Assembly: GCA_009787485.1 (NCBI GenBank)
Contig: WQWP01000002.1
Location: 1 to 50,321 of the forward strand
Origin: Lentimicrobiaceae bacterium
GTDB lineage: Bacteria; Bacteroidota; Bacteroidia; Bacteroidales; WCHB1-69
Direction: 5' to 3'
Length of the DNA stretch: 50,321 nt
A program made the translations under genes and the position numbers. This document shows, one piece after another, positions 244-27,430 of the stretch. Each line of letters starts with the position of its first letter. Position 1 is the stretch's first letter. The notes below the pieces were generated by a model. That model was not told the DNA's origin and did not search any database. It saw only the letters and a program-made list of their open reading frames with translations.

Positions 244-314
244 AGGGGAATAGTTTAAGGGTAGAATAGCGGTCTCCAAAACCGTTGATGGGAGTTCGAA
301 TCTCTCTTCCCCTG
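244..314 (+). tRNA. tRNA-Trp (anticodon CCA)
   Basis: It folds by hand as a 71-nt cloverleaf: acceptor AGGGGAA/TTCCCCT, anticodon stem GCGGT/ACCGT with loop CTCCAAA, T-arm GGGAG-TTCGAAT-CTCTC, discriminator G. It aligns position by position with E. coli tRNA-Trp. The 3' CCA is not encoded. Confidence 0.9.
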
Positions 315-4613: not shown

Positions 4614-5825
4614 TCAATCTCTCACACACCTCACACTTATCGCATCCGTCAGGTTAATTTTAACCGTTTCAACCCGATTACAGTAATAGGTAAATTGTGC
4701 GGCAAGAGAACCAGTAGCCGTTGGCTCATCTGAAGACCAAAAGGCGGTGTAGCCGTACAGATTTTCGAAACGTTGCGTGTTGCTGTTGTAGAGACCTGCC
4801 CCGCGAACGTCTAAGCCTGCAATATTGGTGTTGCTGTTGGGATGTAGCCAAAAATCAGGATTTTTCAAATCGTTCGCTGCATACATGTTGAGCGTTGCCA
4901 ATTCGGCGGGGGTGGGCAAACGCCAGCCGGCAGGACAGATGAGATTGCCCTCAATGCCCATACCCGTTGCAGCATACCAATTGTACAGCAATCCAAAATT
5001 ACTTTCGTTTTGGGCAATATCAGCATAGCGGCTGCTGTAGTACGTTACAAACGGAATATCTTCGCCGCTTTGATACAGTTTGGCGTGCAAATTCTTTGCT
5101 GTCCAGCAAATTCCCTGCAAATCACGCACGTTGTAGAGGAGGTTGTTTACGGCATCGTACATCTCATTAATTATTGTAATGGTAATAGTAGCCGTAGTGG
5201 CGCACTCTCCCGGATCGGGGGTGAAGGTGTATTCGGTGGTTTCCGTATTGTCTATTTCCGGCAACCATGTGCCTTTAATGCCCTCATCGGAGATGCGCGG
5301 CAGCGGAATAACGGCGCCGGTACAGCGCGTAGTCTGCACTCCCGCAAACGTTGGAGGCTCTACATTCGGAACTATCGTAATGGTAATAGTAGCCGGCGTG
5401 GTACACTCGTCGGAAGTGGCTGTAAAGAGATACTCGGTGGTTTCCGTATTGTTTATTTCCGGCGACCATGTTCCCAAAATTCCATTGTTGGAAGTGGTGG
5501 GCAGCGCGGGAATGTCGGAATCTGCACAATACACGTCACGTATTCCCGTAAAGATGGGTATCAGCGATGTAAAGTTTGCCGTTAAAGCGCTGTCGGAGGT
5601 TGCGTTAAAAGTGAAGGTGGGAAGCGTAGAGAGTACAGTTGCCCCACTTGTCCAGCTTACAAACCTGTAACACTCTTCGGGAGTTGCGGTTACGGTTACG
5701 CTCTCATTTTCCTTGTAGGTACCGCCACCGTTTACCACACCGCCATTATACGGATTTGCCCATACCACGATGTCGTAAGTTATAATCAAATAGGTATTTA
5801 TAATCAACTCGAAAGGCGCATCCAA
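4614..5825 (-). CDS. FISUMP-domain (Fibrobacter succinogenes major paralogous domain) surface protein, probably N-terminally truncated
   Basis: The C-terminal half has FGLLYNWYAATG...CPAGWRLPTPAELATL...GYTAFWSSDE, typical of FISUMP. It is preceded by two tandem domains of about 53 aa each (GILGTWSPEINNTETTEYLFT / GIKGTWLPEIDNTETTEYTFT, nt 5169-5528). There is no ATG and no signal peptide. The frame opens just after a TAG, and the track start is TTG. Confidence 0.6.
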   Translation of the reverse strand: MDAPFELIINTYLIITYDIVVWANPYNGGVVNGGGTYKENESVTVTATPEECYRFVSWTSGATVLSTLPTFTFNATSDSALTANFTSLIPIFTGIRDVYCADSDIPALPTTSNNGILGTWSPEINNTETTEYLFTATSDECTTPATITITIVPNVEPPTFAGVQTTRCTGAVIPLPRISDEGIKGTWLPEIDNTETTEYTFTPDPGECATTATITITIINEMYDAVNNLLYNVRDLQGICWTAKNLHAKLYQSGEDIPFVTYYSSRYADIAQNESNFGLLYNWYAATGMGIEGNLICPAGWRLPTPAELATLNMYAANDLKNPDFWLHPNSNTNIAGLDVRGAGLYNSNTQRFENLYGYTAFWSSDEPTATGSLAAQFTYYCNRVETVKINLTDAISVRCVRD

Positions 5826-10928: not shown

Positions 10929-11771
10929 TTAATAATCGCCAATTGTTTCGGGGAGCTGATTTAATGCTATTTGTGCTTGTTCCTCATTTGGGGGTGAGCC
11001 GTGCCATTTGTGCGTTCCCATCATAAAATCCACACCCATACCCATTTCCGTGTGCATGATGACTACTACCGGCTTTGATTTTTGGGCAAGTTTTTTGGCT
11101 TCTTCCATTTGTTTTACTACATTTTCCATGATATTTCCCTGCATTTCTATCACTTTCCAGTCGAATGCTTCAAATTTGGCGTGCAAATTGCCCAAGCTGC
11201 ACACATCGTCGAGCGCACCGTCAATTTGTTTTTGGTTGTAGTCTATAATGAGGATGAGGTTATCTACTTTATTTGCTGCGGCAAACATTATGGCTTCCCA
11301 ATTTTGTCCTTCTTGCAGTTCACCATCGCCACACAGCACGTACACCAAATTGGGGTCGTGGTTTGCTTTTTTGGATAGCGCGGCGCCGATAGCTACGGAA
11401 ATTCCTTGCCCCAACGATCCGGAAGCTACTCTGATGCCCGGTAGATCGTAATTTGGAGAAGGATGTCCTTGCAAGCGTGATCCCAGCAACCGGAATGTTG
11501 CCAACTCTTTTACGGGGAAATAGCCTCGTCGCGCCATCACGCTGTACAACACCGGCGAAATGTGCCCGTTGGAAAGGAAGAACATCTCTTCACCGGCTCC
11601 GTTTTGGGAAATATTTTCGGGAGCGCTGTTTAAGATGTTAAAAAACAGGGCGGTCATAAAATCGGCGCAACCGAGCGAGCCGCCGGGGTGCCCTGATTTT
11701 GCGGCGCAAACCATGCGGACGATGTCGCGGCGCACTTGGGTGGCGATTTGTTCTAATTCAAAAATGTGCAT
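10929..11771 (-). CDS. Transketolase, N-terminal (thiamine-diphosphate binding) subunit of a split enzyme
   Basis: 280 aa with SGHPGGSLG, GDGELQEGQNWEA and HGSPP motifs. Confidence 0.85.
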   Translation of the reverse strand: MHIFELEQIATQVRRDIVRMVCAAKSGHPGGSLGCADFMTALFFNILNSAPENISQNGAGEEMFFLSNGHISPVLYSVMARRGYFPVKELATFRLLGSRLQGHPSPNYDLPGIRVASGSLGQGISVAIGAALSKKANHDPNLVYVLCGDGELQEGQNWEAIMFAAANKVDNLILIIDYNQKQIDGALDDVCSLGNLHAKFEAFDWKVIEMQGNIMENVVKQMEEAKKLAQKSKPVVVIMHTEMGMGVDFMMGTHKWHGSPPNEEQAQIALNQLPETIGDY

Positions 11772-12148
11772 ATTGTTTTGGCAATTTCTTTAAACTCTTC
11801 TTCCGTAAATTTTAAGATTTCTTTCCCGTGGTTCATGTCGCCTTCTACTTTAATGGGGATTAAATGAATGTGCGTGTGCGGCACTTCCAAGCCGATTACT
11901 TTGATGCCTATTCTTTCGCAGGGGATTGCTTTTTTCAGCGCGGTGGCAATTTTTTTAGAAAACAGCATCAAGCCGGTAAGTTGTTCATCGGATAAATCGA
12001 AGATATAATCGTTTTGTATTTTAGGAATGACCAACGTGTGTCCTTTCGACGTGGGACGGATATCTAAAAATGCGAAATAATCGTCGTTTTCTGCAATTTT
12101 ATAACAAGGAATATCGCCTTTAATAATTTTTGTGAAAATTGTTTCCAT
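11753..12148 (-). CDS. HIT-family nucleotide hydrolase
   Basis: METIFTKIIKGDIPCYKIAEND...GHTLVIP...HTHIHLIP histidine triad. I start it at ATG 12148 because the longer ORF-track start overlaps greA. Confidence 0.85.
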   Translation of the reverse strand: METIFTKIIKGDIPCYKIAENDDYFAFLDIRPTSKGHTLVIPKIQNDYIFDLSDEQLTGLMLFSKKIATALKKAIPCERIGIKVIGLEVPHTHIHLIPIKVEGDMNHGKEILKFTEEEFKEIAKTICTFLN

Positions 12149-12149
12149 C

Positions 12150-12623
12150 TTATCTTGATATTTTGATGATTTTGAATTGCATGGTTCCTGCCGGCGCCTG
12201 AATGGTGGCAACGGCATTTTTCGCTTTGCCAATTAAGCCTTTGGCGATGGGGGAGGCAACGGAAATTTTTCCGGCTTTAAAATCAGCTTCCGATTCCGGC
12301 ACTATGGTGTAGGTCATCTCCATATTATTTGCCAAATTTTGGATAGTTACAATGGAGTAAATCAATACTTTAGAAGTGTCAATTTTTGTTTCGTCCAAAA
12401 TACGCGCATTGGCAATCAAATTTTTTAATTTTCCAATTCTAAGTTCCAACAAACCTTGTGCTTCTTTTGCAGCGTCGTACTCTGCATTTTCAGATAAATC
12501 GCCTTTATCTCTTGCTTCGGCAATGGCTGCGGAGGCTTTTTGACGTTCAACGGTTTCCAAGAGTTTTAATTCGCATCTTAGCGCGGAGAGGCTCTCTTCG
12601 GAATAGTATTTAAATTCGTTCAT
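12150..12623 (-). CDS. greA: Transcription elongation factor GreA
   Basis: 157 aa with ...ARDKGDLSENAEYDAAKEAQ... coiled-coil finger motifs and a C-terminal globular domain. Confidence 0.9.
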   Translation of the reverse strand: MNEFKYYSEESLSALRCELKLLETVERQKASAAIAEARDKGDLSENAEYDAAKEAQGLLELRIGKLKNLIANARILDETKIDTSKVLIYSIVTIQNLANNMEMTYTIVPESEADFKAGKISVASPIAKGLIGKAKNAVATIQAPAGTMQFKIIKISR

Positions 12624-12647: not shown

Positions 12648-12690
12648 CCGGTAAAAAAAGAAATTAAAGAGGCTTACTATAAGCCTCTTT
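12648..12690 (-). terminator. Rho-independent terminator closing the 23235-12720 operon
   Basis: On the minus strand: AAAGAGGCTTA-tag-TAAGCCTCTTT (11-bp perfect stem, 12666-12690), followed by aatttcttttttt. Confidence 0.7.
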
Positions 12691-12719
12691 AAGTTGTAGT
12701 TATAAAAGGGAGAAAAATC

Positions 12720-13907
12720 TTACAAGCAGATTTTCAATCCAATATAGTGATTTCCTTTCCAGAAATTAGTAAAGCGATAAGCATAATCTAACAAGAGTTG
12801 TTGATTTCCTCTTCCTTTTTTAGCTAAAGGCACCCCAACCGTAACGCCGGCGCTTGGTCCTAAGTAAAAACTATCTGCGTTCGCAAAAATTTGATTTTTT
12901 CCATCAATATTTCTTGTTTGAAAACTTTGCAACATGTAGCCTGCACGTACTTGAAAGAATTGCATAAATCCGTACTCAATACCTAAGTTGAAGTTATCGC
13001 GCGAATAAGCATTGGCAGTGAAAGATCCGGCTAATGTAATACGGTGCATAGCGTCGGTACGTGTTAATCCTTCGGCTTTTCTGTCTTCTTTGTCCATAGC
13101 TTGATATGCTTCACTGAAGATGAGAAAGTCGTAAGATAAACCGATGGTAAGTAATGCAGGAAGTTCATACTGAGCTTGCCGGAATTCCACAGTAGAGATA
13201 TGGTTGGTACCTTCCAACACTCCTCTGGTTGAAATACCGTCTCCTTTATAGCTCATGGGTACTCCCAGGTTTTGCAACACTACACCAATTTTAAAGTTTT
13301 CGTAGGGTCCTGAGAGGTATTGTACGCCCACATCAATCGCGATACCATTAGCGCGGAGGTCTGAAATACTTTCATTTACAATTTTAAATGAAACACCTCC
13401 GTGAATAAATCTGTTAAATGATTTCGCATAATGGATGCCGATGTAGTTCAATCGGGGAGAAAAGATAGCTCCATTGCCGTCGGGTTGATCTACGGTAGTC
13501 ATGGAAATATCTCCGAATCCCATGGCAAATATGGAAACTGCTACTGTTCCCAGGTCAATTCTGCGGCCGGTTTCTTTATTTTTAGCCGACAGCCCTTGTC
13601 CAACGCCGAAAGCATTGATATTAATACCGCCGAATGATCCGGCGAGGTATTGTGTGTGTGTGAAAGCCACTTCTGTTCTTTTAGTAAAAGCGAGTCCGGC
13701 AATATTACTGAATACGGATTCTAATCCGCGTGTTTCTGCTACGCCGCACGAACTCCAACCGGAAGAACGCGCCCACGGGTCAATAAGAAGATGCTGTGCT
13801 CCGGACTGACCTGAACGGTCTCTGTTTCCTGCCATTGCGGTAAATGTAACGACACAAAAACCGAGCATGATACAGATGATTAGTAAGGTTCTATATATTT
13901 TTTTCAT
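12720..13907 (-). CDS. PorV/PorQ-family (FadL-like) outer-membrane beta-barrel, second PorV paralogue
   Basis: It has a signal peptide. The segment ...AQHLLIDPWARSSGWSSCGVAETRGLESVFSNIAGLAF parallels the FLMIAPDSRAGGMGDMGVATS...NPA segment of the porV at 30541-31785. Size is similar (395 vs 414 aa), with beta-barrel periodicity. Confidence 0.6.
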   Translation of the reverse strand: MKKIYRTLLIICIMLGFCVVTFTAMAGNRDRSGQSGAQHLLIDPWARSSGWSSCGVAETRGLESVFSNIAGLAFTKRTEVAFTHTQYLAGSFGGININAFGVGQGLSAKNKETGRRIDLGTVAVSIFAMGFGDISMTTVDQPDGNGAIFSPRLNYIGIHYAKSFNRFIHGGVSFKIVNESISDLRANGIAIDVGVQYLSGPYENFKIGVVLQNLGVPMSYKGDGISTRGVLEGTNHISTVEFRQAQYELPALLTIGLSYDFLIFSEAYQAMDKEDRKAEGLTRTDAMHRITLAGSFTANAYSRDNFNLGIEYGFMQFFQVRAGYMLQSFQTRNIDGKNQIFANADSFYLGPSAGVTVGVPLAKKGRGNQQLLLDYAYRFTNFWKGNHYIGLKICL

Positions 13908-13944
13908 AATCTAAAATTTTTAAGGTTACTAATTAACAATATGG

Positions 13945-16900
13945 TTAGAATGTATTCAAGTCGGTTGGACGCATCGTGCAGAAGAATTTCAACATTCTTT
14001 CGCCGATCCCCGGACAGTTAACATGAATTATATATACACCGCCTGCAATGGGGATATTGGCAAAGTTTTTCAAATCCCAGTTTACAAAAGACGTTTCGGT
14101 ATCCCCTTTGGTTAGTGTACGCACTAAAATTCCACTTACCGTGAAAATATTGATAGTTACGGGCGCATCATTTTTCAAACCTGTGGGTAGATTAGTGATT
14201 TTAACCATGGTTTCCAGCGCATTTCCTTCATACAAGGAGGCGCCATAATAAGGATTAGGCACAATGTTGATTTGATCGAGCACGGTTTGATATACCCGCG
14301 TATCATTGAATGTAGGCGCCAATTCTTTGGTAGAGACTTTATACACGGGATAACCCAGGTGGTCGAGATCTGCCGGAACGGTATATTGTCTTTGTGCCGG
14401 AGAGTTATACCATCTTGAAATGTATCGCATGTAAGGACGCGTAACCCGTATTTTATAAGTAACCTCGCTACTCAGCCATTGTCTTCGGAGTTCCGGATCT
14501 TCAGGCTGCATGGGAATATGCGTGTACATTACGTTGTTGAATAATTGCATTTTAATAGTTCGCTCCCATATTATAGTGAGGGGTAATCTCGGCCTGGTCG
14601 GGTGATTCGGAATCATAAATTGATTAAATTTTTGAACCAACCATTCTCCCTGGTCATAAGACGGACATTCATAAGCAGGATACTTTTTTGTTTCGGGGTC
14701 AATAAAGCTTTCATACGCAACACTCGGCGCCATGTTACCTCCGCTTGGCGTTCTTATTAAAGTATCCATAAGGTTAAAGTTACGTTTTGCATTGTTTAGA
14801 AAATCATTTTCCGGAAAATGATAACCATAGTGGTTAGGGTTATGATTAGGCGGACTGTCACTTGGTTTTGCTACACCACCATACAATCCATCCGAATTAA
14901 AAAAGAGTCCGGCGGTATTTCCTGCACTATTACAAATATAAACATAATGCATTCCACCCCAAATTCTTTCTATTCCAAGATCTGTTAATCTAACCCGCTG
15001 ATTTATTTGTACAAATTCAAACAACATATCGTACTGCCATTGAGGAATGGGAGTTCCTGCTCTTATAAAAGGAATATCCAACGTATCAACATCTTTTGTG
15101 GCGAGTGCATATACATAAGTGGGGTTGAATATCATATCGTTTCCATTGATAAGGTTACCATATTTTGCCAGGGTGGTGTCAGAATTTTCACCGAACATGA
15201 TATTCAAACGCTCACCTGTTTCAAGATTTACGGCATATCCGGGGAACCAGCCCATGCCTTGATTTCCAGTGGGGCCAAAACCATCTGTGGCATCGGGAGT
15301 AGGATTACCATCTTTATCAACGGATATTGCTTTTCTCGGTTCATTTTTCAATGCTCCTCCTTCTGCTTTAGTACGATCTGAGCACGATTCTAATACCACA
15401 CATCTTGTCCATTTATCCCGATCCGGTGTAAGTACAATATCCACTGAATAGAGATTGGTCATCGTTTGATTATAACCGGGCTGTCTGGTGGGTAGTTGTA
15501 TATCTTGAAAGCTGTAATAAGCAGGGAGGGGTTCCTGAGCTTGAATAGTGGTAGTACCGGGACCGGGGCGAGGAAAAGTATTTTCATCAGGGTTAACATA
15601 TTTTGCTTGCGGCCCACCGTCGTATGGGGAAGCTAACACATATGGCGCCCATGTTCCGTTGCAAAGGGTTCGAAATTCACCTGTATAATCTTTAAAAGCA
15701 CGATCTTGTATCCAATTTGGCGCTCCTGTTTGCTGATCAACACGGAACGACAGGCGGTTCGTAATAAAAAATGCATCTTCCAATCTCCATCTTTCATATT
15801 CATTTTTAACAGGAGGGTTACCTGCATAAGCAGCAGGATCCTCCCATTTACCTTTGTCGCGATTTCCGGCACGAATCCAATTTGAAGGAACATCCACGGA
15901 AGCGCTCATCAAGCCTGTGATCCATTGACTATTAGGTCTTTCAAAAATAACATCGCCTTGCGGAGGATCAATTTTTCGAGATTGTGCATAGTGAAGTTTT
16001 GCTTTATAGTCATTATATTTAACTATACCGAGCGTGTCACCCATAATACGCCCCCAAATTGCAATAATTTCGGGTTGGGTGTTCACAAAATCGATATTTG
16101 TAATGCCCACAGAGATACCTAACGGGAAGATAATTTGTTCGTTATGTTGCCCGATTGATGTTTGAGAAGTAAACACACGCATTGCGTTGCCATAATTATC
16201 TATTAAACCGGCTTCTATTAATTCCTCATCCGATACGGTTGGGTCAATAGAAAGTATCCAATACGCATCGTTAGATAGATCGGTAGTAGCATTGTTTATG
16301 ACAGAATCTCTAATAATAATCGTGTAATCGTATGGTTTTACGCGAAGCGGGTCTATTACTTTTACATTGAGGGGACCTGCATTCTTTTCATATTTAAGTT
16401 CGGCAGCTCTAAATGTACTATTGCCGGCAGCGTCTTTATCGCCACCTTTCACGATGTAGTCAATCGTTTCTTTTGTAAGTTCCAATGGCACACCGCCATT
16501 TCCTTGTCCATCCACACGAATAATGTTTGGAATGGAGCCATAATCGCTGTTTAGCGTAAGGCCTCCGCCATGAACAGATGGTGGATGCGGTATTGCGGGA
16601 ATTGCTGTAACAGACCTTCCTTCTGCTGTTTTTCGACCTCTCAGATAGGGGAGTTTTTGTCCAACTAATCCTATGGGGCTGCTATCGTCAATGAAGAAGG
16701 GCGCATATTCGTTATAAGCATAAGCGATGGCAATGAAATAGTATGTTTTGTAATTCACTAATTGCCGGTTTCCTGTAGCAAAAGCATCCTGGATAACTTC
16801 AAATGAGTGTTCGATACCGAGGTTGGCGCCATCCACCTTTTCTCGTGGAACAGGCACCTGCAAACTTTCATCAAACTCCCAATTGATAAGTCTTCCGACA

Positions 16901-19326
16901 GGACGACCATTCTTATCAAAGTTAACAACATCATATTGTCGTATTATTCGAGCCAAACTTGGATTGTCCAAATCGTTGGCGCCTACTTCAGGGCCTGCAA
17001 CCTGGAATATTTGGTATCCTTCAAAACGGTAATACCGATCATAAAATATAGTGTCGAAGGTTGTTGAAAACACCGTGGTATCCCCACCAAAATAGATCAC
17101 AGTATCCTTTGTAAAAAAGATCACCGTATCTATTCCGCCTATACTAACTATTAATGAGTCGCTTATAGTAATTTTCATTGAGTCAATACGATGTTGTATT
17201 ACGTCAATTCTAAGTTCTGGAATAGTGGGGTCCATTTCTTCATAGTCTTCCAGTTCATTATTACCTGCGGCGCTATTAGATAACAATAAGATAAGTTTTT
17301 GGTCATATTCTCTAATTGTTAAATTGGGCGCATCTGGGCCATCCAATACTTTGAAACAATTTTCGAACAGCGCCTGACATCTATCATCTGCAATAATTAA
17401 CAGACTGATAGAAGCTTGCACTCCGCCTTGTGTGGCGCGCGCCCACGGAATACCTACCGTGATATAGTTACAAGCGCCTTGTTTGAGAGTAAATGGCCCT
17501 GCAGATTGCATAAAACGGCGGTCATCCGGGGAGTTTCTTTTAGATCCTGTTCCATTCGGGTCTTCTTCCGACCAGGTTCCTGTTCTACCTCCGTTTCCAT
17601 AGATGGCTCCCGGTTGCACTCCTCTGGTGCCCCAGTTGCAATAGTCGGTGCCTCTTGGGAACATAAAATCACACTCCGCAGTATTTTTGTTATCAAAGCC
17701 ATTTCCACCGTAGGTCATTCGTTGACCATTTTTCCATATTCCTCTCAAAAGATTGTAAAATTCAACGGCATTACCGGGGTCTCCAATTTCAGAGCTACTA
17801 TTATTATGGTAAACAAAGCGTCGCATTCCGAAACGTTCATTATCTACAATTCCATCGCCAAAGTTTACACCATTGATGGCAAATTGATTGTTATATCGTA
17901 TAGGCATGGTGTCTTTAGTACCGTCATGATTTGTAATTTCAATTGTTTTCGTAGGGTGAGGTTCTGAAAGATCTTTCGGACCATTCGGATACTGATCAAT
18001 TGGCCACTGTTCAAACAAATAATCTACAAATAGCCTGCAGTATTCTCTTTGTGTCTCACTTCCGGTAGCATCAGCTAACTCTTTATGGAATTTAGGATTG
18101 TCGGAACCGTCCGGGTCAATATAGGGACCTTGAAAGAAGTCCACTCCTACTGCCGGAGGATTAGATCCATAAGCCCAAAACTGTCCGGTGCCATCAATTT
18201 CAACACCATTATAACAATACCCCATACCTCTGTTTACATCACAACCCACATAGTCGTCTTGTGCATATCCCAAGTCGGGGTCCACCCATTGTGAGAAATA
18301 AGTATTTCTGAGTGTATTTCTACCACGGTTAATGATTTCATAAGAATAGAACGTCATTTTATTCAACTCGTCATTAGTAGCAAAAGCAAATGCTTGTACC
18401 CTTATTTCAAGTCCGATAGATCTATTACTTCTTGATTCGGTATGTGCTCCCCCCCTGTCATTAAGGAACCAAAAAATGGTTTCGTCACCTTTAAGTACGT
18501 GGTCTGCATATATCATCATGTTGTCTCTGTATTCGAAGTCTTGTTGTTGGCGTGTCCATATACGTTCCGGAGGCATAGGTAAAGCTTTACTATTTTGATA
18601 TCTTCCTGTTGGGCTGGGATTTGTTCCATCAGCCGACTCGCTCCATGGCAGTTCTTTTGCTCTCTCTCTATTCACATCAGTCCATGGGCAAAGCTCATTC
18701 TCAAAGTCGTAATAAGGATAGTCGCCCAGTTGAGGCCGATACACAGTAGGGTCATTCCCTCCCCATGTTTTATACGGCGCCAAATACATTGATTCTCCAT
18801 CTACTCCATTACCGGGCCATTCTAAAATAGACTGTGGGATCACGTATTCGGGATCATTTTCTATTTGGGCTCTGATATGTCTTTCTACTTCTACACGAGA
18901 AATTGGAAAGAATCTATCATAACGGCTACAGGTAGGTTGGTCAATAGATCCGTCTTTCATTTTCAACGGGCCAGTCCAAAAGTCGTTTCCTCTTTGCCCG
19001 AATGTCATAGCAGCTACATAAAGTTGTTCTGCATCATCTTGTCCTCCAATCCAAAGCGCAGCTGAAAACATAGAGGTTTTACCGGATCCTTTAGGAACCT
19101 CATATTCTGCGATTTCTTTAAACCACATAGTTCCATTGGTTTTCAAGAAGGCTCTTACAAGGTTTAAGGAGAGTTCTGTGTTTCTTGCAGGCGCTAAACA
19201 ATCTGCAGACGCTTTGGGCGCTTTAGTTTTCACAATAGGACCCTTATATTTTTCAGCCTGCACTTGTAAAGTGCCCATCATGAAAATAAGGGATAAAACA
19301 ATTAAAAGTTTAAATTTACTATTCAT
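13945..19326 (-). CDS. 1793-aa secreted protein of unknown function with a T9SS CTD-like C-terminus
   Basis: SPase-I type signal (..LQVQA-EK). No motif I can name across about 1650 aa. The last about 100 aa (IVPNPYYGASLYE...INIFTVSGILVRTL...WDLKNFANIPIAGGVYIIHV...) have the PNP...G.Y pattern of T9SS sorting domains. Confidence 0.6.
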   Translation of the reverse strand: MNSKFKLLIVLSLIFMMGTLQVQAEKYKGPIVKTKAPKASADCLAPARNTELSLNLVRAFLKTNGTMWFKEIAEYEVPKGSGKTSMFSAALWIGGQDDAEQLYVAAMTFGQRGNDFWTGPLKMKDGSIDQPTCSRYDRFFPISRVEVERHIRAQIENDPEYVIPQSILEWPGNGVDGESMYLAPYKTWGGNDPTVYRPQLGDYPYYDFENELCPWTDVNRERAKELPWSESADGTNPSPTGRYQNSKALPMPPERIWTRQQQDFEYRDNMMIYADHVLKGDETIFWFLNDRGGAHTESRSNRSIGLEIRVQAFAFATNDELNKMTFYSYEIINRGRNTLRNTYFSQWVDPDLGYAQDDYVGCDVNRGMGYCYNGVEIDGTGQFWAYGSNPPAVGVDFFQGPYIDPDGSDNPKFHKELADATGSETQREYCRLFVDYLFEQWPIDQYPNGPKDLSEPHPTKTIEITNHDGTKDTMPIRYNNQFAINGVNFGDGIVDNERFGMRRFVYHNNSSSEIGDPGNAVEFYNLLRGIWKNGQRMTYGGNGFDNKNTAECDFMFPRGTDYCNWGTRGVQPGAIYGNGGRTGTWSEEDPNGTGSKRNSPDDRRFMQSAGPFTLKQGACNYITVGIPWARATQGGVQASISLLIIADDRCQALFENCFKVLDGPDAPNLTIREYDQKLILLLSNSAAGNNELEDYEEMDPTIPELRIDVIQHRIDSMKITISDSLIVSIGGIDTVIFFTKDTVIYFGGDTTVFSTTFDTIFYDRYYRFEGYQIFQVAGPEVGANDLDNPSLARIIRQYDVVNFDKNGRPVGRLINWEFDESLQVPVPREKVDGANLGIEHSFEVIQDAFATGNRQLVNYKTYYFIAIAYAYNEYAPFFIDDSSPIGLVGQKLPYLRGRKTAEGRSVTAIPAIPHPPSVHGGGLTLNSDYGSIPNIIRVDGQGNGGVPLELTKETIDYIVKGGDKDAAGNSTFRAAELKYEKNAGPLNVKVIDPLRVKPYDYTIIIRDSVINNATTDLSNDAYWILSIDPTVSDEELIEAGLIDNYGNAMRVFTSQTSIGQHNEQIIFPLGISVGITNIDFVNTQPEIIAIWGRIMGDTLGIVKYNDYKAKLHYAQSRKIDPPQGDVIFERPNSQWITGLMSASVDVPSNWIRAGNRDKGKWEDPAAYAGNPPVKNEYERWRLEDAFFITNRLSFRVDQQTGAPNWIQDRAFKDYTGEFRTLCNGTWAPYVLASPYDGGPQAKYVNPDENTFPRPGPGTTTIQAQEPLPAYYSFQDIQLPTRQPGYNQTMTNLYSVDIVLTPDRDKWTRCVVLESCSDRTKAEGGALKNEPRKAISVDKDGNPTPDATDGFGPTGNQGMGWFPGYAVNLETGERLNIMFGENSDTTLAKYGNLINGNDMIFNPTYVYALATKDVDTLDIPFIRAGTPIPQWQYDMLFEFVQINQRVRLTDLGIERIWGGMHYVYICNSAGNTAGLFFNSDGLYGGVAKPSDSPPNHNPNHYGYHFPENDFLNNAKRNFNLMDTLIRTPSGGNMAPSVAYESFIDPETKKYPAYECPSYDQGEWLVQKFNQFMIPNHPTRPRLPLTIIWERTIKMQLFNNVMYTHIPMQPEDPELRRQWLSSEVTYKIRVTRPYMRYISRWYNSPAQRQYTVPADLDHLGYPVYKVSTKELAPTFNDTRVYQTVLDQINIVPNPYYGASLYEGNALETMVKITNLPTGLKNDAPVTINIFTVSGILVRTLTKGDTETSFVNWDLKNFANIPIAGGVYIIHVNCPGIGERMLKFFCTMRPTDLNTF

Positions 19327-19353
19327 ATTATTTATATTTTACAAGGTGAAACA

Positions 19354-22300
19354 TTAAAAAGAAAACGATACGCCCAAGTGCACTCTAAAGGGTCGTGTAA
19401 AATTATAGGGATTTGCAATTGCCATTTCGTAGAAATTGATAGCTGAAGCTACCGGCATTCCGAAAGCAGTTCCTCTTGCTATTTGAGTTTGGAACAAGGA
19501 GGAAGACAGGTATCCGTCATCAATCGGGCTTCCTGTGTAGTCGTAAACACCTTGTACATTCTTTATATTGAAGAGGTTTTGAAAGTCTAAATATACAGTA
19601 AGCAAACCGGGTTTATTTTTGCGTTTTCCGCCTTCGGTTTCTTTTTTACTTGCTAAATTGAGGAAGAACGATTTATCAATACGCATATCACAGGTAAAGA
19701 TCCAGGGCATATTCGCTCCGTTGATAGATCCTTTTAGCTGTCCGGCTTTTCTTTCTCCCCATTGTAAAGCGGAATATACGATAGCCGAGCGTGAATAAGG
19801 CATACCGGAAGCCGCAGAGGCCATTAAGGTGACTCCTGAGTTTTCCAACCACCTAATCTCCTTTGTTCTATCAGTACCTCTCTTTTGTTTAATAGTTTTT
19901 GGCCCGTTGTACTGAGTTCCCGAGTGGAAGCGGAGGTCAATGGTTCCGGAAATATTATGCCGCTGGTCGTCCGATAAGTTAACCAATGTTCTCAAGTTCG
20001 GTTGTCCCGAAGCGATAATGGCAAGGTTTGAACCCGGGCTTGATCCGGTTCCTTTAGCAAACTGTAAGGTGTAGTTTATACGGAAAGATAAATTCTTAGT
20101 ACCCCTCATGTCAAGTCCTAACACATATCCTTGTACTGTACCAAAGTCTTGGTTTTCGAAAGAGTAATAAGTGTTTGGATAAGCGCCTGTGAAACGGTAA
20201 GATTGAATCATGTCTCTTTTTTCGGAGTAGTAAGCCGCAATACGAAGCGCTGCATTTTCTCCTACTTTTTGCCGGAATCCGATTTCATAGTCCACACTTC
20301 GCTGTGCGCGCAGTTTCGGGTTATTAATAATGTCGTTAGCAGATTGATTGTTTGTAATAAACAAATAGGAAACGGGGTCAATGAGCAAATTCGTAGCGCG
20401 GTAAGTAATAATGTTATAGTGCGCATAAAACAGTGAGTTGGTAGATACCGGGAAAGAGAATGAAATCCGTGGCATCAAACTCCATTGAGGGTTATACCTT
20501 TCAAACGCATCGCTTGAAACTTTAGAAGGAGCGTCGGGATCGAGCGCCTCTCTTAAAATGGGTCCACCTGTTCCCAAAACGCCGGTGGGGTCAGTAATTT
20601 CTTGTCCTCTGTTATTATACCATGTTTTTCCCTCTCTATAGGCTACCACTCCCGATGTTGGTGCGCCTCCCAAATCATTATCAGCAGTAGATATATAAGG
20701 AACCCAGTCTCCGGTAGCGTTATTGGGGAAGCTGAAATTTCTCCAGGCTTCGGGAACGTTTGGATTGTTTCGGAGTTGTCCTACCGTCCAGGCATCTCTC
20801 AATAAGAACGGGTCTCTTAATACCCATTGGTTGGCATTAAAATAGTCTAAACGTAATCCTACATTGAAAAGGAGGTTAGAAATAGAGAACTTATCTTGTA
20901 AGAAAATCGCCAAATAAACCGGTTCAAAAGCGCCGATAGCATATTTATCTTTTTCGTGCAAATCTCCTCCGCTGAAAAAGTTAGTTAAGCTTATTTTTTT
21001 ATTTGAGATGGCGCCGGTATAGTCGTATCCGCTATAGTTAACCAACGGATTAATACCATTTCTGAGCAACTCGAAATTAGAGAATAAATCTAAACTGAAA
21101 TCATTGGGGTCATAGCTGTCAATATCAAGAAATATTTGATTATTGTCAATGCCTCTGCGTGCTCTAAGATTTCTGTCAAAATTAGAAAGATTGGTCAAAA
21201 TAGGATACATAAGTGTATCTATAATGGCTCCTGTGGTGGGATCGAACACGGGGTTGTTACCACCAAGTTGCCAGTATGGGTTTGCAAAATCGAAGGGGAA
21301 CTGGCCGTCGTCGTAAGTCAACTCTCTCATACGACTCCACAAGCCTATAGCGTTCACAGAATAATTTCTGGTGGTAAGTTTTTCAAATTCAAATCCAAAC
21401 TTCACATCGTGGTCTTTAATATTAAGAGATAAACTGGCTCTTGCGCCAATGGCGTCTTGTCTCGCTTTGGAATACCCTCCTGCATTGCGCCCCGGTGAGG
21501 TATATAATCCGTTGGCAATATTGTTGGGAATATCTCCATTTAAAAGCGCTTGATAGTTTCCATATACTTCATTAGTTAAGTTGAAACCTCCCAGAAACTG
21601 CCAAACTAAAGCGCGGTCAACGTCAGAAGCGTTGTTAATATCTACCCCTGTTTTTTCTTTTATAAAATCAATGAAATTTTGAGTATAAGGTAATAATTCG
21701 GGATTATAATAGTTTCCGTTATTGAGATATCCGTCTTTTTCAAATGTTACCCAGTTTGCAGCCTGATAGTTTACCAATTTCATAGCCCTCATCATACTAT
21801 CTCTTCCGGTAAAGGGGTTATATACCTGCATCATTTCCGGCATATACAAGTCGCTTCTTTCGGTAGTAAACTTACCGATATAGCCATATCCGAAGAGGTT
21901 ATCTTTAAGAACTCTGTCTTGAGATTTTCCATTATATAATGTATAATTAACATTAATGTCATACATTACATTTTTTAGGATAGCATTTGCGGCGGTATCT
22001 GTTTTTACGCGGTGGTTTATTCTGGCGCTTAAACGCAGTGTATTATTTACCCCCATTCCGCTATTGTTTGCATTAAAGAGTGCATTGAATCTTCCCCAGT
22101 TAAGCCATTCCATGTATTCATACGATCCGGTGAAAGAGATGCGGAGATTGTTTTTGGATCTTCCTCGTGCATCTTTTCCACCTCCCATAATATCAATTTT
22201 TCCGGTAGCAATAAAGCCCCAGTCTTGAGCTTGCTGACGTACTCTTACTTGTTTAAAAGCGTCGCTTCCCAAATCATTCGCTCTGTAATAAGGCACGTAT

Positions 22301-23235
22301 CTTCCGGTAGCGAATCTGTATTCGATGGGGTTGTTAATAATATCTTGCGTAACCTCTGGTTTAGCCATCCATGATCCGCCTCGGAGTGGTCGGCTGTCCA
22401 TGTTATAAGTACCTTCGGCAGCGATGAAGAATCCCATACGTGGTGGGTCTTGGGGGGTTTTACCTCTAAGAATAGGACCGGAGATGTTAGCTGCAGCCAA
22501 CATTTGTCCATATCCTTCCACAGAGCTTCGGAGTTCTACGCTTCCGTGGTAGTCTTTCGCTACGCCACGGGTGGTGATCACGGTGAAGCTCGTACCGTCT
22601 CCAAATTCAGCGGGGATACCGCCTTGAATAAGTTCGGCGCCTTCCACCGCTTGCATGGGCACGCCGGCATTTCCACGCACCCGCACGCCGTCGATCATGG
22701 TTTGTTGACCATCACTACGGTTACCGCGCACGGCTGCGATATTGCCGTCCACAGAGGCAACACCGTCTAAGTTTGAGAGGGCGGCCGTAATAGAACGTCC
22801 GGGCGTTTTACGCACTTCATCTCCGGTTAATTTTGAAGAGGAGGTCGTGTTGTCTTGCGAGAAGATGGGTGGTACCCATTCCACTATTACCTCTTCCAAT
22901 TCGGTAGAAGCGCAATCAACCACAAGGTTAACAAACTTCACTTCCGAAGCTGACACATAAATACCCGTTTGGGTGTAGGTAATCGGGCAAGTTGCTCCAC
23001 CGGCAGTAATGTCGTACGTACCTGCTGCAATACCAAAGATTGAGTATTCGCCGCGGTCATCGGTGTATCCACCGTTGAGCACCTTACCATCCTGTTTTAA
23101 AAGAATTTGCAGGAATGGTACCGGAGATCCGTCAGGACTTTTTACTACCCCTTTAATGGTACTTTGGGCGTAAAGCACGCTCCCAGCCAACATACACAAA
23201 GAAAGTGTAAAGAGTAATTTTTTAATCATAGCCAT
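19354..23235 (-). CDS. TonB-dependent receptor-type outer-membrane protein, oversized (1293 aa), with N-terminal carboxypeptidase-regulatory-like domain
   Basis: Signal peptide, then STIKGVVKSPDGSPVPFLQILL...GTYDI (CarboxypepD_reg-like). A plug-like region follows (AAVRGNRSDGQQTMIDGVRV...ELIQGGIPAEFGD), then a long beta-rich region ending ...HLGVSFSF. Confidence 0.7.
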   Translation of the reverse strand: MAMIKKLLFTLSLCMLAGSVLYAQSTIKGVVKSPDGSPVPFLQILLKQDGKVLNGGYTDDRGEYSIFGIAAGTYDITAGGATCPITYTQTGIYVSASEVKFVNLVVDCASTELEEVIVEWVPPIFSQDNTTSSSKLTGDEVRKTPGRSITAALSNLDGVASVDGNIAAVRGNRSDGQQTMIDGVRVRGNAGVPMQAVEGAELIQGGIPAEFGDGTSFTVITTRGVAKDYHGSVELRSSVEGYGQMLAAANISGPILRGKTPQDPPRMGFFIAAEGTYNMDSRPLRGGSWMAKPEVTQDIINNPIEYRFATGRYVPYYRANDLGSDAFKQVRVRQQAQDWGFIATGKIDIMGGGKDARGRSKNNLRISFTGSYEYMEWLNWGRFNALFNANNSGMGVNNTLRLSARINHRVKTDTAANAILKNVMYDINVNYTLYNGKSQDRVLKDNLFGYGYIGKFTTERSDLYMPEMMQVYNPFTGRDSMMRAMKLVNYQAANWVTFEKDGYLNNGNYYNPELLPYTQNFIDFIKEKTGVDINNASDVDRALVWQFLGGFNLTNEVYGNYQALLNGDIPNNIANGLYTSPGRNAGGYSKARQDAIGARASLSLNIKDHDVKFGFEFEKLTTRNYSVNAIGLWSRMRELTYDDGQFPFDFANPYWQLGGNNPVFDPTTGAIIDTLMYPILTNLSNFDRNLRARRGIDNNQIFLDIDSYDPNDFSLDLFSNFELLRNGINPLVNYSGYDYTGAISNKKISLTNFFSGGDLHEKDKYAIGAFEPVYLAIFLQDKFSISNLLFNVGLRLDYFNANQWVLRDPFLLRDAWTVGQLRNNPNVPEAWRNFSFPNNATGDWVPYISTADNDLGGAPTSGVVAYREGKTWYNNRGQEITDPTGVLGTGGPILREALDPDAPSKVSSDAFERYNPQWSLMPRISFSFPVSTNSLFYAHYNIITYRATNLLIDPVSYLFITNNQSANDIINNPKLRAQRSVDYEIGFRQKVGENAALRIAAYYSEKRDMIQSYRFTGAYPNTYYSFENQDFGTVQGYVLGLDMRGTKNLSFRINYTLQFAKGTGSSPGSNLAIIASGQPNLRTLVNLSDDQRHNISGTIDLRFHSGTQYNGPKTIKQKRGTDRTKEIRWLENSGVTLMASAASGMPYSRSAIVYSALQWGERKAGQLKGSINGANMPWIFTCDMRIDKSFFLNLASKKETEGGKRKNKPGLLTVYLDFQNLFNIKNVQGVYDYTGSPIDDGYLSSSLFQTQIARGTAFGMPVASAINFYEMAIANPYNFTRPFRVHLGVSFSF

Positions 23236-23343
23236 TAAATTATATTAAACATAAAATTAGAATTTTCAGGAATGCGAAAATATGAATTATTTCTTTTCGG
23301 TTACAAAGAAATAAAAAAAAATCATAAAAAAAGCAGTAATTAA

Positions 23344-23751
23344 TTAGCTTTTAGTGTTTTTAAAAATCTCACTAAACAAGAAAGCTCTTTGAAGCTCTGT
23401 GCCTTCAAAACCTTCTAATAATACAATATTATTTTCTGAATCAATATTTTGTGAAATGTTTTCAGAAGTTTTTACGGGAGGACTCACTGTTCCTGTATTT
23501 TGTGTTTTTTTATTTTTTTTGTTCGTTTTTGTATAAAAATCGGCATTTTGTGGTGAATTATGAACATCATATTGTCGAAAAATGACTACCGGATCGAGGG
23601 GATTATACGAGTCTGCTTCCTGTGGAAAATCATGATAAGACTCTTCCGCTCTTTCCGGCGAAGATTGCTTTTTCTTTTTCGATTTTATATACAAGCTAAA
23701 AATTGAAATAGCGATTGCGAAGAGTAAAAATATGATTTGTTCGGTGTCCAT
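23344..23751 (-). CDS. Hypothetical single-pass membrane protein
   Basis: 135 aa with an N-terminal TM helix (IIFLLFAIAISIFSLYI), a lysine-rich stretch and a low-complexity tail. It lies 20 nt downstream of the exonuclease gene. Confidence 0.45.
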   Translation of the reverse strand: MDTEQIIFLLFAIAISIFSLYIKSKKKKQSSPERAEESYHDFPQEADSYNPLDPVVIFRQYDVHNSPQNADFYTKTNKKNKKTQNTGTVSPPVKTSENISQNIDSENNIVLLEGFEGTELQRAFLFSEIFKNTKS

Positions 23752-24725: not shown

Positions 24726-26729
24726 TTAATTCTTAATCAATTTGAGTGTTTCAAACGTATTATTTTCTTTATGTATCCTTACGAAATATATGCCTGTTGG
24801 CAACTGAGAAATATTTATCTTAATTCCACTGTTTTCCGTTCTGCCTTCTGCCTTCTGCTTTCTGCCCATCATATCATAAATCTCAATATTCGTGATTCGT
24901 GATTTAACATTTATAATTTCAATCCAATCATTTGCCGGATTTGGCTTTAACATAGCAGGGACTGGCGACGGTTCGCAACAATTTGGAGATGAAGTGATTT
25001 CACCGAAAACAGGCCTTAACATTGGAGTGCCTTTGAAGACAGATTCTTCCCATATTCCACGCGTGTTAAATCTGAAAAACTCCCGCGAGTCGGTATTTTG
25101 GTCGAAACCGATATTCAACTGTACGTTGCCGTGTTGCTGAAAGCCTACCCAAAAAGTTCCCGATACCGGAACTTTCTTATTAAACGGATATTCTACAAAG
25201 TCCAAAAAATCTTCTTCAAAACCAGGCCGGTTTCCTTCCAAAGTATAGAGTGTGTCACCGGGTACCCCATTGTTATCTTTCCAAACAAAGATAGAGAATA
25301 GGGCGTTTTCGTTTGCAGAATTTCTTGTTTGGTTGAACCACATACGCACTGCACTTAAGTCATCGGGCTCCTTCAACGAAAATTTCATCGCCAAATAAGC
25401 TACATTAAATTGATTATTAATACAATATCCATACTCTGCCGTGCCGTCGTCATACGCATAATAATCGTAAAATTTTTGTTCAAACACACAAGTATCATTG
25501 GCAAGAGCAAAATCTTCAGCCTCAGCAATTCGAAAAATATGGGTGATCGTAAAAACAGTAGTATCCTTTAAAACCGGCGTAAATCCAATTGCCGGAAAAG
25601 CTTGATCCGGTTGGCTCTGAATGCCTTTCTCGAAATAGTGCATAATCTGAAAAGCATGCATTAAAATATTATATTCATAGACCACATTTCCATGTTGAGT
25701 AATGTTATATTGATAAATTGAAGTACGCGCTGCATCACTAAGGTTGGTAAGTTGATTAGTAAAATTAGATTTCATATTTGAGGGTTGAAACTGCTTCCAC
25801 GGCATCGCCTGATAATTGTTTAAGAAAGAGGTGGTAGGACTTACAAAAGCCAGGTCGTTCGTAAAAATATCGTTAGAGTTTCTATTCACATCCAAACGGA
25901 TATAATCAATATGCCATTGATCTACATTGCCTTCCCAGCCCGCAATGCCTTGTTGCGGCTCGAGGCTTGCAAAGTTTCTAAATCGAAACTGAAAATTATC
26001 ACAGAGATACTTAGGGTCGGTAATGGGGATTAACACCTGCCTAAAATATTCGAGGGGATTTTCGGCAAGCCATTCATCAATATTAAACCCGTGCGAAAAC
26101 CAAACTTGATCCCAATAAGTGACATAAACAGTGTCTTCCAATACGGTATAACCAAATTCAAGTATCAGTAAGTCGTTATGTTCGGGCTGGTTTCCAATAG
26201 TTGCTTCCACGCCTGCACCTGCTACCCCTCCGCCTCCGGGTTGAAAGTAAAAACTGAAATAGATAGAGTCTGCCGGCGTAATTCTCCGAATCGTATCTGC
26301 CAAAAACAACGAATCCAATCTGATATAGCGCGAGGTCAGCGTGTCGGCGCCTCTGGGAGTAGTGGTCAAATGAGGATAAAGTTCTCCGTGTTCGTTCAGG
26401 GCATCTAAGGTAACCACACCAATAGTGGGCGGAAAAACCGGAAATGTATGATTTACAAAAGCCTGTTTGTCCATAAAAAGTTTTTCATTAGGATAACCGG
26501 TATAATTAGAAAAGTCTTCAAAAAAAGGCAATAACAGCGGAGCGTGTTCAGCGGTAGATTTCTGTTTAAAAATTTCTCTATGTTGCTGATTTTCTTTGAT
26601 AATTTGAGGGTTTGTTCGGAGGCCCGTTAAAAATTCCTGAGCTCCTAAGGGAGCGCACAAGCCCAACAAGAAGAACAAGAGTAGTATTTTACTAACAAGA
26701 GGTCGTATAAAATTGTAATAAGTATTCAT
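24726..26729 (-). CDS. Secreted protein of unknown function with a T9SS type-A C-terminal sorting domain
   Basis: Signal peptide (LLLFFLLGLCAPLGAQ) and a C-terminus ...KPNPANDWIEI...IEIYDMMGRK...QLPTGIYFVRI...LKLIKN. Its start overlaps the upstream stop (TAATG). Confidence 0.7.
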   Translation of the reverse strand: MNTYYNFIRPLVSKILLLFFLLGLCAPLGAQEFLTGLRTNPQIIKENQQHREIFKQKSTAEHAPLLLPFFEDFSNYTGYPNEKLFMDKQAFVNHTFPVFPPTIGVVTLDALNEHGELYPHLTTTPRGADTLTSRYIRLDSLFLADTIRRITPADSIYFSFYFQPGGGGVAGAGVEATIGNQPEHNDLLILEFGYTVLEDTVYVTYWDQVWFSHGFNIDEWLAENPLEYFRQVLIPITDPKYLCDNFQFRFRNFASLEPQQGIAGWEGNVDQWHIDYIRLDVNRNSNDIFTNDLAFVSPTTSFLNNYQAMPWKQFQPSNMKSNFTNQLTNLSDAARTSIYQYNITQHGNVVYEYNILMHAFQIMHYFEKGIQSQPDQAFPAIGFTPVLKDTTVFTITHIFRIAEAEDFALANDTCVFEQKFYDYYAYDDGTAEYGYCINNQFNVAYLAMKFSLKEPDDLSAVRMWFNQTRNSANENALFSIFVWKDNNGVPGDTLYTLEGNRPGFEEDFLDFVEYPFNKKVPVSGTFWVGFQQHGNVQLNIGFDQNTDSREFFRFNTRGIWEESVFKGTPMLRPVFGEITSSPNCCEPSPVPAMLKPNPANDWIEIINVKSRITNIEIYDMMGRKQKAEGRTENSGIKINISQLPTGIYFVRIHKENNTFETLKLIKN

Positions 26730-27343
26730 TATTCTATGGTTTCGTTTTCATTTTCAAAAGGTAAATCGTCCGTATTTTTTCCAACCACTAAGGTGATAGT
26801 TTCCCCTGCGCTGATTTCGGTTCCCGGCGCAATCGCCCGTCCTCTGTAAAGCTGCTCTAACACAGCATTTTCATAATGATCCGGTTTAAAAATAACCGGT
26901 CCGCACTCCAACCCGATGGACTTTAACATAATTTCTGCCTGCCGCAAAGAGATATCTTGCAATTGCGGCATAATTACTTTCGGAGGCTCGCTCGAAGCCA
27001 CCGTAACATACACTTTTCTTCCCTTTTTCACCATCTCGCCCACGTGCGGGTCTTGCTTCAACACAGTTCCGGGCGGCACACTTCTATCATATATATAATC
27101 TGAAATAACAATAACGTAGTCTTTAGCCCCTCCTTCATTATTCATTATTCCATATTCAATATTCAATAACTCCTGCGAATCCATCCCTATAAAATCGGGC
27201 ATCACCACTTCTGTTCCATGCCGCGTATAAGAAGACAAAGCAAAAAGAGCGATCATACAAATGATAACGAACGCACCAATAGCCAATAAGATATGAAATC
27301 CCAATTTTCGAGGTGAAGAAAAAAAAGTTCGCAATCCGGACAT
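26729..27343 (-). CDS. Membrane-anchored PASTA-domain protein
   Basis: An N-terminal TM helix and two PASTA-like units (VVMPDFIGMDSQEL..., VIMPQLQDISLRQAEIMLKSIGLE...). I start it at ATG 27343; the track start is TTG 27373. Confidence 0.65.
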   Translation of the reverse strand: MSGLRTFFSSPRKLGFHILLAIGAFVIICMIALFALSSYTRHGTEVVMPDFIGMDSQELLNIEYGIMNNEGGAKDYVIVISDYIYDRSVPPGTVLKQDPHVGEMVKKGRKVYVTVASSEPPKVIMPQLQDISLRQAEIMLKSIGLECGPVIFKPDHYENAVLEQLYRGRAIAPGTEISAGETITLVVGKNTDDLPFENENETIE

Positions 27344-27430
27344 TAGAGCATAAGTATTGTTTATAAACAACAAAAATATAATTTTATTATAATTGAAGGT
27401 GTAATAAAAATTAGGTATAAATTATTTTAA

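Follow-up and report, generated by a model that had tools for sequence, protein, structure and literature searches.

A conserved g1-g2-g3 cassette of Bacteroidota predicted to encode a TonB-dependent transporter, a giant type IX cargo protein and a PorV/PorQ-family barrel

The first 50,321 nucleotides of contig WQWP01000002.1 (assembly GCA_009787485.1), from a Lentimicrobiaceae bacterium of the Bacteroidales, are referred to here as the window. Three adjacent minus-strand genes of the window, designated g1, g2 and g3, almost certainly constitute a conserved operon, in which g1 is predicted to encode a divergent, oversized TonB-dependent transporter, g2 a secreted giant that is very probably type IX secretion system (T9SS) cargo, and g3 an outer-membrane barrel of the PorV/PorQ family. 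By analogy with characterised systems, the reading tentatively preferred here, at a little under an even chance, is that the giant is exported by the T9SS, held at the surface through its C-terminal domain (CTD) by the g3 barrel, and serves as the partner of the g1 transporter. No published description of the cassette was found in the literature, and the statement of the initial annotation that the combination matches no named system still stands after recent papers on the T9SS and on structures of the Bacteroidota beta-barrel assembly machinery (BAM) were taken into account.

Gene order, transcription signals and distribution

The coordinates of the three open reading frames (ORFs) and the gaps between them (27 nt between g1 and g2, 19327-19353; 37 nt between g2 and g3, 13908-13944) are exactly those first annotated. 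Across 74-75 species loci, the median g1-g2 gap is 25.5 nt (range 5 to 41) and the median g2-g3 gap is 30 nt (range -11 to 37). The sole strong terminator-like hairpin in the neighbourhood of the cassette follows g3, as had been claimed, with slightly wider limits (Table 1; previously 12666-12690); the sole other minus-strand match within g1-g3 is a weak one of six pairs (21433-21450), and the overall number of terminator-like matches is about that of shuffled sequence. A hairpin with a T run is found after g3 in 59 of 75 related loci, but after g1 in only 1 of 74 and after g2 in only 1 of 74.

Among close relatives, the order g1-g2-g3-greA is present in 80 of 80 species loci of uncultured Bacteroidales in which the contig reaches the flanks. 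Since these close loci also share the synteny around greA, a distant sample of 11 giants at 35-41% identity was chosen. The full trio is present in seven of these 11 distant loci (L081, which is from Luteibaculum, and L082, L085, L086, L087, L090 and L091); profiles built from Bacteroidales only recognise the distant partners with 822-1092 bits for g1 and 258-375 bits for g3. In L085, the trio is complete and the greA neighbour has been replaced, and in L088, where the gene order is rearranged, a g1 homologue is still adjacent to the giant. Because the trio recurs in distant loci, is kept despite changed flanks and retains the adjacency of g1 despite a changed order, the genome sequences identify it as an old, specifically co-inherited unit beyond local gene order. 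The synteny of close and distant loci, the tight gaps, and the hairpin after g3 and not after g1 or g2 together indicate a conserved single transcription unit, in agreement with the single transcript first proposed.

Two of the distant loci have additional genes of these families: L091 (258-7969), in a complete 3.79-Mb genome, has a tandem pair of g1-type transporters (1228 and 1230 aa) ahead of the giant, and L090 has, just after greA and the HIT gene, a second PorV-family gene (13062-14114) that scores 21.6 bits with the g3 profile and belongs to a different subfamily.

Beyond the cassette itself, greA and a HIT gene lie on its 3' side in the window (11753-12623) and in L081, L082, L086, L087, L090 and L091, so that this neighbourhood spans Bacteroidales, Flavobacteriales and other Bacteroidia. 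A 2-Hacid_dh gene is often found on the 5' side, and L086, L087 and L091 have ruvC close by, 3' of the HIT gene. The flanking block of gene order is unusually long-lived despite the terminator between g3 and greA. Such persistence of greA and HIT across classes demonstrates that long-lived order without common function occurs at this very place, and could mean that g1, g2 and g3 are likewise neighbours only by inherited gene order, with no shared function. This explanation is considered highly unlikely, for the gaps inside the trio are tight and free of terminators, in contrast to the boundary after g3; the trio, or at least the adjacency of g1, outlasts changes of flank and order in L085 and L088; and all three products have predicted locations in the outer membrane or at the cell surface, where the pairing of a cargo with a PorV-family barrel has a mechanistic rationale (PMC5562754).

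A candidate promoter of the Bacteroidota type was read from the sequence 5' of g1, with TTTG at 23307-23304, a 21-nt spacer, and TAttTTCG at 23282-23275, which has one mismatch to TAnnTTTG. In 23 of 72 related loci the exact TAnnTTTG motif occurs within 145 nt 5' of g1, and in 13 of 72 it occurs within the same distance 5' of g2, against a background of 6.4%; 5' of g3, this -7 motif was found in none of 72. A strict two-box scan for Bacteroidota promoters gave five matches versus 3.98 expected, which is chance level. The candidate in the window and the motif counts in related loci are no more than suggestive of a promoter upstream of g1. The copies of TAnnTTTG 5' of g2 are located inside the 3' end of g1 and possibly represent an internal promoter for g2 and g3 in some lineages. 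A TPP (thiamine pyrophosphate) riboswitch in L086 was dismissed as a regulator of the cassette because it belongs to an unrelated transporter. The 135-aa ORF on the 5' side of g1 (23344-23751, minus strand), with one N-terminal hydrophobic helix and a low-complexity middle rich in Lys and Asn, is conserved in the three closest loci only, at 40-45% identity, and lies outside the wider cassette.

The g2 family is large, with more than 5000 relatives at 90% clustering. A search of 1.84 billion representatives at 50% identity with residues 25-1200 of g2 (CTD excluded) returned 6558 clusters at E <= 0.001, of which 1528 were at E <= 1e-30. Family members are typically 1300-1500 aa in length, and their names go no further than 'hypothetical' or 'T9SS sorting domain protein'. 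Metagenome-assembled Bacteroidota from the rumen, termite and horse gut, digesters, and marine and freshwater environments account for nearly all carriers; the matches listed include one cultured carrier, Luteibaculum oceani (Flavobacteriales; WP_147014336.1). Typical Bacteroidales cassettes also appear in two bins titled 'Oscillospiraceae bacterium' (L008 and L069), which are probably mis-binned or mislabelled.

Predicted products of the three genes

The g1 protein is predicted to begin with a signal peptide and to end with a long barrel, and its CarboxypepD_reg and Plug domains both exceed the Pfam gathering scores (Table 1), in keeping with the receptor-type protein first described. Among 15 orthologues, including very distant ones, CarboxypepD_reg is matched by 15, Plug by 14 (best E = 8.8e-15) and TonB_dep_Rec_b-barrel by seven; the best match to the PF00593 barrel has E = 1.8e-14. 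The candidate TonB box, assigned by position and pattern, coincides with a motif before the plug, L-x-E/D-V-E/x-I/V-V, that is kept in alignments with distant orthologues, its first residue (L113) being invariant; the terminal Phe, F1293, is also invariant. The orthologues start at the second ATG of the window's ORF (MIKKLLF), so that the true start of g1 may be at 23229, giving a protein of 1291 aa. The SusC/RagA model (TIGR04056) is not matched by g1 at E <= 0.01 in NCBIfam, and no SusD partner was found, the gene directly 3' of g1 being g2, which has no match to SusD or any other Pfam family; the absence of a SusD partner had been pointed out at the outset. On these grounds g1 is classified as a divergent, oversized TonB-dependent transporter that is not of the SusC type, although the barrel of the window's own copy is only indirectly supported.

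The g3 protein matches the NCBIfam family of PorV and PorQ (NF033709) with 111.8 bits, above the cut-off of 90, but is below the equivalog cut-offs for PorV (47.7 versus 250 bits) and PorQ (46.1 versus 220 bits). A g3 profile matches the PorV of Flavobacterium johnsoniae (6h3i_F) with E = 6.4e-8, and hhalign pairs g3 with the window's canonical PorV over 270 columns (82%, E = 1e-5), where BLASTP reaches only E = 0.076. Homology is visible at the profile level only, so that the paralogue of PorV in the original description is to be read as a distant relative. All of 14 g3 orthologues match PorV_fam, nine match PorV2 weakly, and three match PorP (TIGR03519) weakly. The family searches thus place g3 in a distinct PorV/PorQ subfamily that is predicted to be orthologous to neither PorV nor PorQ. 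Identification of g3 as the FadL-like protein BamG, or of the cassette as the newly described BAM of Bacteroidota, was rejected because neither matches the published descriptions and g3 is of the PorV/PorQ family.

The giant encoded by g2 starts with a predicted signal peptide, MNSKFKLLIVLSLIFMMGTLQVQA, read by eye with cleavage before EK, and A24, the last residue of this peptide, is invariant in the family alignment. No Pfam or NCBIfam family matches g2 at E <= 0.01, and a PDB sequence-profile search found nothing outside the CTD. Two overlapping AlphaFold2 models, of residues 25-1200 (predicted local distance difference test score, pLDDT, 74.4; predicted template-modelling score, pTM, 0.69) and 600-1793 (pLDDT 80.5, pTM 0.77), are both mostly beta-rich and multi-domain. 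Foldseek comparison of both models with the PDB gave nothing significant (E <= 0.001) for residues 25-1680, and comparison of the N-terminal model with BFVD gave nothing at E <= 0.001. The best fold match outside the CTD, a sandwich of the GH94-type phosphorylases, was rejected (E = 0.046, template-modelling score about 0.11). HExxH, HxxEH, CxxC and DxDxDG were absent from g2 in a motif scan; a single GxSxG and a single DxDxG were dropped because they are not conserved as motifs, as was a His295/Cys362 dyad of the clan-CD peptidase type, which lies in a region predicted to be all-beta. The initial annotation could name no catalytic or binding motif in the giant, and these searches concur.

Invariant polar and aromatic residues are distributed along the entire length of the giant, even at 35-41% identity, where more than 100 positions of the family are invariant and no internal repeats were noted. 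From its sequence, an enzyme or a specific binding machine seems a better description of the giant than an adhesin, and its high conservation disfavours a plain adhesin. Large, beta-rich, multi-domain T9SS cargo with weak structural matches to Ig-like and FN3-like domains would nevertheless be accommodated if the giant were a surface coat, adhesin or gliding-type protein, with g3 as its dedicated shuttle or anchor and g1 as a mere neighbour or passive platform; cargo with a barrel of its own has precedents in SprB-SprF and other type-B pairs (PMC9143113, PMC12618676), and extra orphan and tandem paralogues of the giant are present, as is common for adhesins. This explanation is nonetheless improbable. 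Adhesins and coats usually evolve fast and contain repeats, g1 stays adjacent to the giant even where gene order changes, and the cassette is present in non-gliding anaerobic Bacteroidales of the gut.

The giant of L085 (protein P0263, 7001-12064, 1687 aa) carries a beta-propeller insertion of the Ycf48/BNR type (PSII_BNR), which falls in a variable region at about residue 1010 of the window's g2 and suggests that this region is a surface-exposed loop that tolerates whole domains.

The last 110 or so residues of g2 are identified by sequence comparison and structural modelling as a T9SS CTD, nearest to the CTDs of PorZ and PorU; together with the signal peptide, this bears out the secreted protein with a T9SS-CTD-like end that was first described. 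The sole significant Foldseek match of the C-terminus is PorZ (5m11, E = 4.7e-5), followed by the CTDs of translocon-bound T9SS substrates (8glk_D and 8gl8_D, with a Foldseek probability of about 1). Within the window, the closest BLASTP match is the CTD of PorU (E = 1.4e-5), in which VTINIFTVSGILVRTL of g2 is aligned to ILVHIFTVSGKLVRTI. Among 15 diverse members of the g2 family, the C-terminus of the PorZ model is matched by ten, TIGR04183 by nine (best E = 9.2e-5) and the C-terminus of the PorU model by six; the PorZ and PorU models match the family over the last 85 or so residues only, and PorZ_N and Peptidase_C25, the peptidase domain of PorU, have no match to g2 in Pfam. The type-B CTD model does not match g2 either, and homologues carry the NCBI name 'T9SS type A sorting domain'. 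K1780, in the final strand of the CTD, is invariant in the 15 diverse members; a conserved Lys in type-A CTDs has been described together with its role (PMC10994853).

Beyond the last strand of the CTD, the family has a tail of its own with the consensus G-x-M-R-P-x-D-L-x-x-F, and this 11-residue extension was not found on PorU, PorZ or ordinary cargo CTDs of the window. Mean pairwise identity in the diverse set is 56% for the CTD and 59% for the tail, versus 41% for the whole protein.

A proposed surface complex compared with known systems

The steps of the proposed mechanism are as follows. The giant would be exported by Sec and then cross the outer membrane by way of the general T9SS, recognised through its CTD. 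The host encodes a T9SS, since PorU, PorV, PorZ and a PorP/SprF-family protein are all encoded in the window with scores above the NCBIfam cut-offs; the predicted dependence of the giant on this general system means that the cassette is not self-contained, contrary to what had first been suggested. PorU cleaves type-A cargo of the typical kind, which becomes attached to anionic lipopolysaccharide. Unlike such cargo, the giant would keep its CTD, which, with the 11-residue tail, would be bound by g3 to form a non-covalent tether at the surface, analogous to PorQ-PorZ and PorV-PorU. So tethered, it would sit with g1 as an extracellular partner for capture or processing, in a role like that of SusD or other surface lipoproteins for SusC, and would hand its ligand to g1 for TonB-powered uptake. 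Secretion by the T9SS, retention of the CTD, the contacts of g2 with g3 and with g1, and the import function are all inferred.

Retention is suggested by two features of the CTD. It is more like the CTDs of PorZ and PorU than that of generic cargo, and PorU and PorZ are themselves exported by the T9SS, keep their CTDs, and have PorV and PorQ, respectively, as their anchors (PMC5562754); according to a proposal made in a review, a CTD is shielded from cleavage by its cognate PorV-like barrel (PMC10202324). Furthermore, the CTD and tail are among the best-conserved parts of the family, whereas the surfaces of ordinary type-A CTDs are poorly conserved (PMC10994853).

The nearest precedents are the PorZ-PorQ and PorU-PorV pairs of Porphyromonas gingivalis (PMC5562754, PMC10202324), which, like the cassette, combine an exported surface protein with a barrel of the PorV/PorQ family; the likeness extends to the CTD of the giant and to the adjacency of the two genes, as in porU-porV. 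However, the giant has neither the propellers of PorZ nor the C25 peptidase of PorU and has the additional tail, g3 is not orthologous to PorV or PorQ, the window has separate genes for the canonical PorV, PorU and PorZ outside the cassette, the operon includes a TonB-dependent transporter, and for g2 retention of the CTD is only proposed. A similar logic of a large cargo beside its own dedicated barrel is found in type-B cargo such as SprB, which use PorP/SprF barrels encoded beside them (PMC9143113, PMC12618676), but there the cassette differs by the type-A-like CTD of g2, the PorV/PorQ family of g3 and the presence of a transporter.

From the side of transport, g1 resembles the transporters of SusC/SusD 'pedal-bin' complexes, and of complexes with other surface lipoproteins, in its CarboxypepD_reg-like extension, plug and predicted enlarged barrel and in its location just 5' of the gene for a putative surface partner. 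The cassette differs from these in having no SusD, a g1 that is not of the SusC/RagA type, a predicted T9SS cargo of 1793 aa in place of a lipoprotein, a PorV-family barrel as third gene, and a location among housekeeping genes and not in a regulated glycan-utilisation locus. PG0534 (PorF; PMC5445135) is comparable to g1 as a TonB-receptor-like outer-membrane barrel tied to type IX secretion; it is about 92 kDa, is not known to be encoded beside a giant cargo and a PorV-like gene, and was set against g1 by description only. The refutation envisaged in the initial annotation fails on both counts, for the giant matches no characterised enzyme or adhesin family, and the three families are syntenic in other genomes. 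What the initial annotation presented as something undescribed does hold for the conserved trio; a cargo with its own barrel of the PorV/PorQ or PorP type is, on the other hand, precedented by PorZ-PorQ, PorU-PorV and SprB-SprF.

Several observations weigh against the proposed partnership in ligand uptake. The barrel of the window's g1 is very divergent, with NCBIfam barrel matches (residues 968-1117) below threshold at 17-18.5 bits, and hhalign of the g1 profile with one ordinary transporter was insignificant; a divergent barrel makes a role other than import possible. Searches 5' of g1, in the window and also in seven distant loci, turned up neither a riboswitch nor any other known regulatory RNA that would hint at a ligand. 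The window's g2 is below the thresholds of TIGR04183 and PF18962, the protein matching only FlgD_ig with 17.1 bits, and whether a CTD is retained or cleaved is not readable from sequence. Two distant loci, L083 (7001-15403) and L084 (2668-11137), have tandem giants with neither partner adjacent, and L089 (8001-11822) has an orphan giant without partners in the same genome that carries the full cassette of L091; these paralogues retain the conserved CTD and tail. The giant can therefore be encoded apart from g1 and g3. Finally, the housekeeping neighbours greA and HIT, found across classes, fit a housekeeping role in the envelope at least equally well.

Such a role, in which the trio would be an accessory of the T9SS or a module for biogenesis of the surface or outer membrane, for example a second attachment-type complex with g1 as a structural or export barrel, is unlikely, though several points favour it. 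Across Bacteroidia and Flavobacteriia, the cassette is deeply conserved beside greA and HIT, joined in several lineages by 2-Hacid_dh and ruvC, and conservation of the sequences is strong from end to end. The CTD of g2 is like those of machine components (PorZ and PorU) and unlike that of ordinary cargo; the NCBIfam models 'PorU2' and 'PorV2', the latter matched weakly by most g3 orthologues, indicate that paralogous sorting modules exist; and PG0534, a TonB-receptor-like protein, is needed for T9SS function in P. gingivalis (PMC5445135). Set against these points are the conserved plug and TonB-box-like motif of g1, which are typical of import, and the dissimilarity of the giant, outside its CTD, to the propellers of PorZ, the C25 peptidase of PorU or any other known part of the T9SS. 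In addition, no well-studied T9SS model organism is among the matches listed (best 120 per search), which is weak evidence that the trio is not a universal requirement of the T9SS.

Other genes of the window and significance of the cassette

The canonical PorV-PorU pair is located about 17 kb from the cassette, where the initial annotation had placed it, and both proteins are confirmed by their NCBIfam scores (Table 1). The presence of PorV, PorU, PorZ and a PorP/SprF-family gene in one 50-kb window is an unusual concentration of genes of the T9SS attachment complex.

Table 1. Coordinates of the cassette, its sequence features and the T9SS genes of the window
Feature	Coordinates	Strand	Basis
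g1: divergent oversized TonB-dependent transporter (predicted)	19354-23235	minus	ORF list, 1293 aa
CarboxypepD_reg, g1 residues 26-100	22936-23160	minus	Pfam PF13620, 36.1 bits (cut-off 32.3)
Candidate TonB box LEEVIVEWV, g1 residues 113-121	22873-22899	minus	Position and pattern only
Plug domain, g1 residues 127-215	22591-22857	minus	Pfam PF07715, 27.7 bits (cut-off 23.9)
g2: secreted giant (predicted)	13945-19326	minus	ORF list, 1793 aa
Sec signal peptide, g2 residues 1-24 (predicted)	19255-19326	minus	Sequence reading, cleavage predicted after VQA
T9SS type-A-like CTD (Ig-like sandwich), g2 residues 1683-1782	13981-14280	minus	Foldseek and BLASTP
Family-specific tail CTMRPTDLNTF, g2 residues 1783-1793	13948-13980	minus	Alignments
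g3: PorV/PorQ-family outer-membrane barrel (predicted)	12720-13907	minus	ORF list, 395 aa
Intrinsic-terminator-like hairpin between g3 and greA	12664-12692	minus	13-bp stem, 3-nt loop, T-rich tail
Candidate Bacteroidota-type promoter 5' of g1	23275-23307	minus	Read from sequence
PorV (canonical)	30541-31785	minus	NCBIfam, 437.5 bits
PorU	31842-35669	minus	NCBIfam, 1187.8 bits; adjoins PorV
PorP/SprF-family gene	35684-36817	plus	Above NCBIfam cut-off; divergent from PorU
PorZ	43587-45896	minus	Above NCBIfam cut-off

The window also encodes a 667-aa T9SS type-A cargo (24726-26729, minus strand), of which only the CTD is recognisable and the first 590 or so residues have no family match; it directly follows a PASTA-domain protein (26729-27373, minus strand). 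Two other minus-strand genes are unrelated to the cassette: a Fibrobacter succinogenes major-domain protein with an InlB B-repeat-like domain (4614-5825) and a gene resembling transposases of the PD-(D/E)XK family (40647-41603). The ORF for a DNA polymerase III clamp-loader subunit (285-1586) has its listed start inside a tRNA gene (244-314, plus strand; Rfam, 64.4 bits), so that its real start must lie further downstream.

The boldest form of the preferred reading, that the trio is an undescribed ancient machine in which a giant with a novel fold stays permanently attached to a PorV-like barrel and either gates a specialised TonB-dependent transporter or feeds it, is at present doubtful. If true, it would be a third way of giving a TonB-dependent transporter an extracellular partner, in addition to lipoproteins of the SusD type and freely secreted binders (siderophores and haemophores, for example), and the first case in which type IX secretion is coupled directly and functionally to TonB-dependent transport. 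New domains, and possibly a new activity in catalysis or binding, would then be defined by the family of giants, with its thousands of clusters and no Pfam entry. Should the preferred model hold, the principle that a cognate barrel keeps its cargo would extend from parts of the T9SS machine and type-B adhesins to type-A-like cargo, and export by the T9SS would be tied to TonB-dependent transport.

The g2 family is large and yet obscure: neither Pfam nor NCBIfam has a model dedicated to it, none of its relatives has a solved structure, and no publication on it was found. This obscurity is most likely due to the fact that nearly all of its carriers are uncultured. Because the fixed association of g1, g2 and g3 spans Bacteroidia and Flavobacteriia, the cassette is expected to have an important conserved function at the cell surface, and its small size, together with the existence of a cultured carrier in Luteibaculum oceani, makes the proposed model testable.

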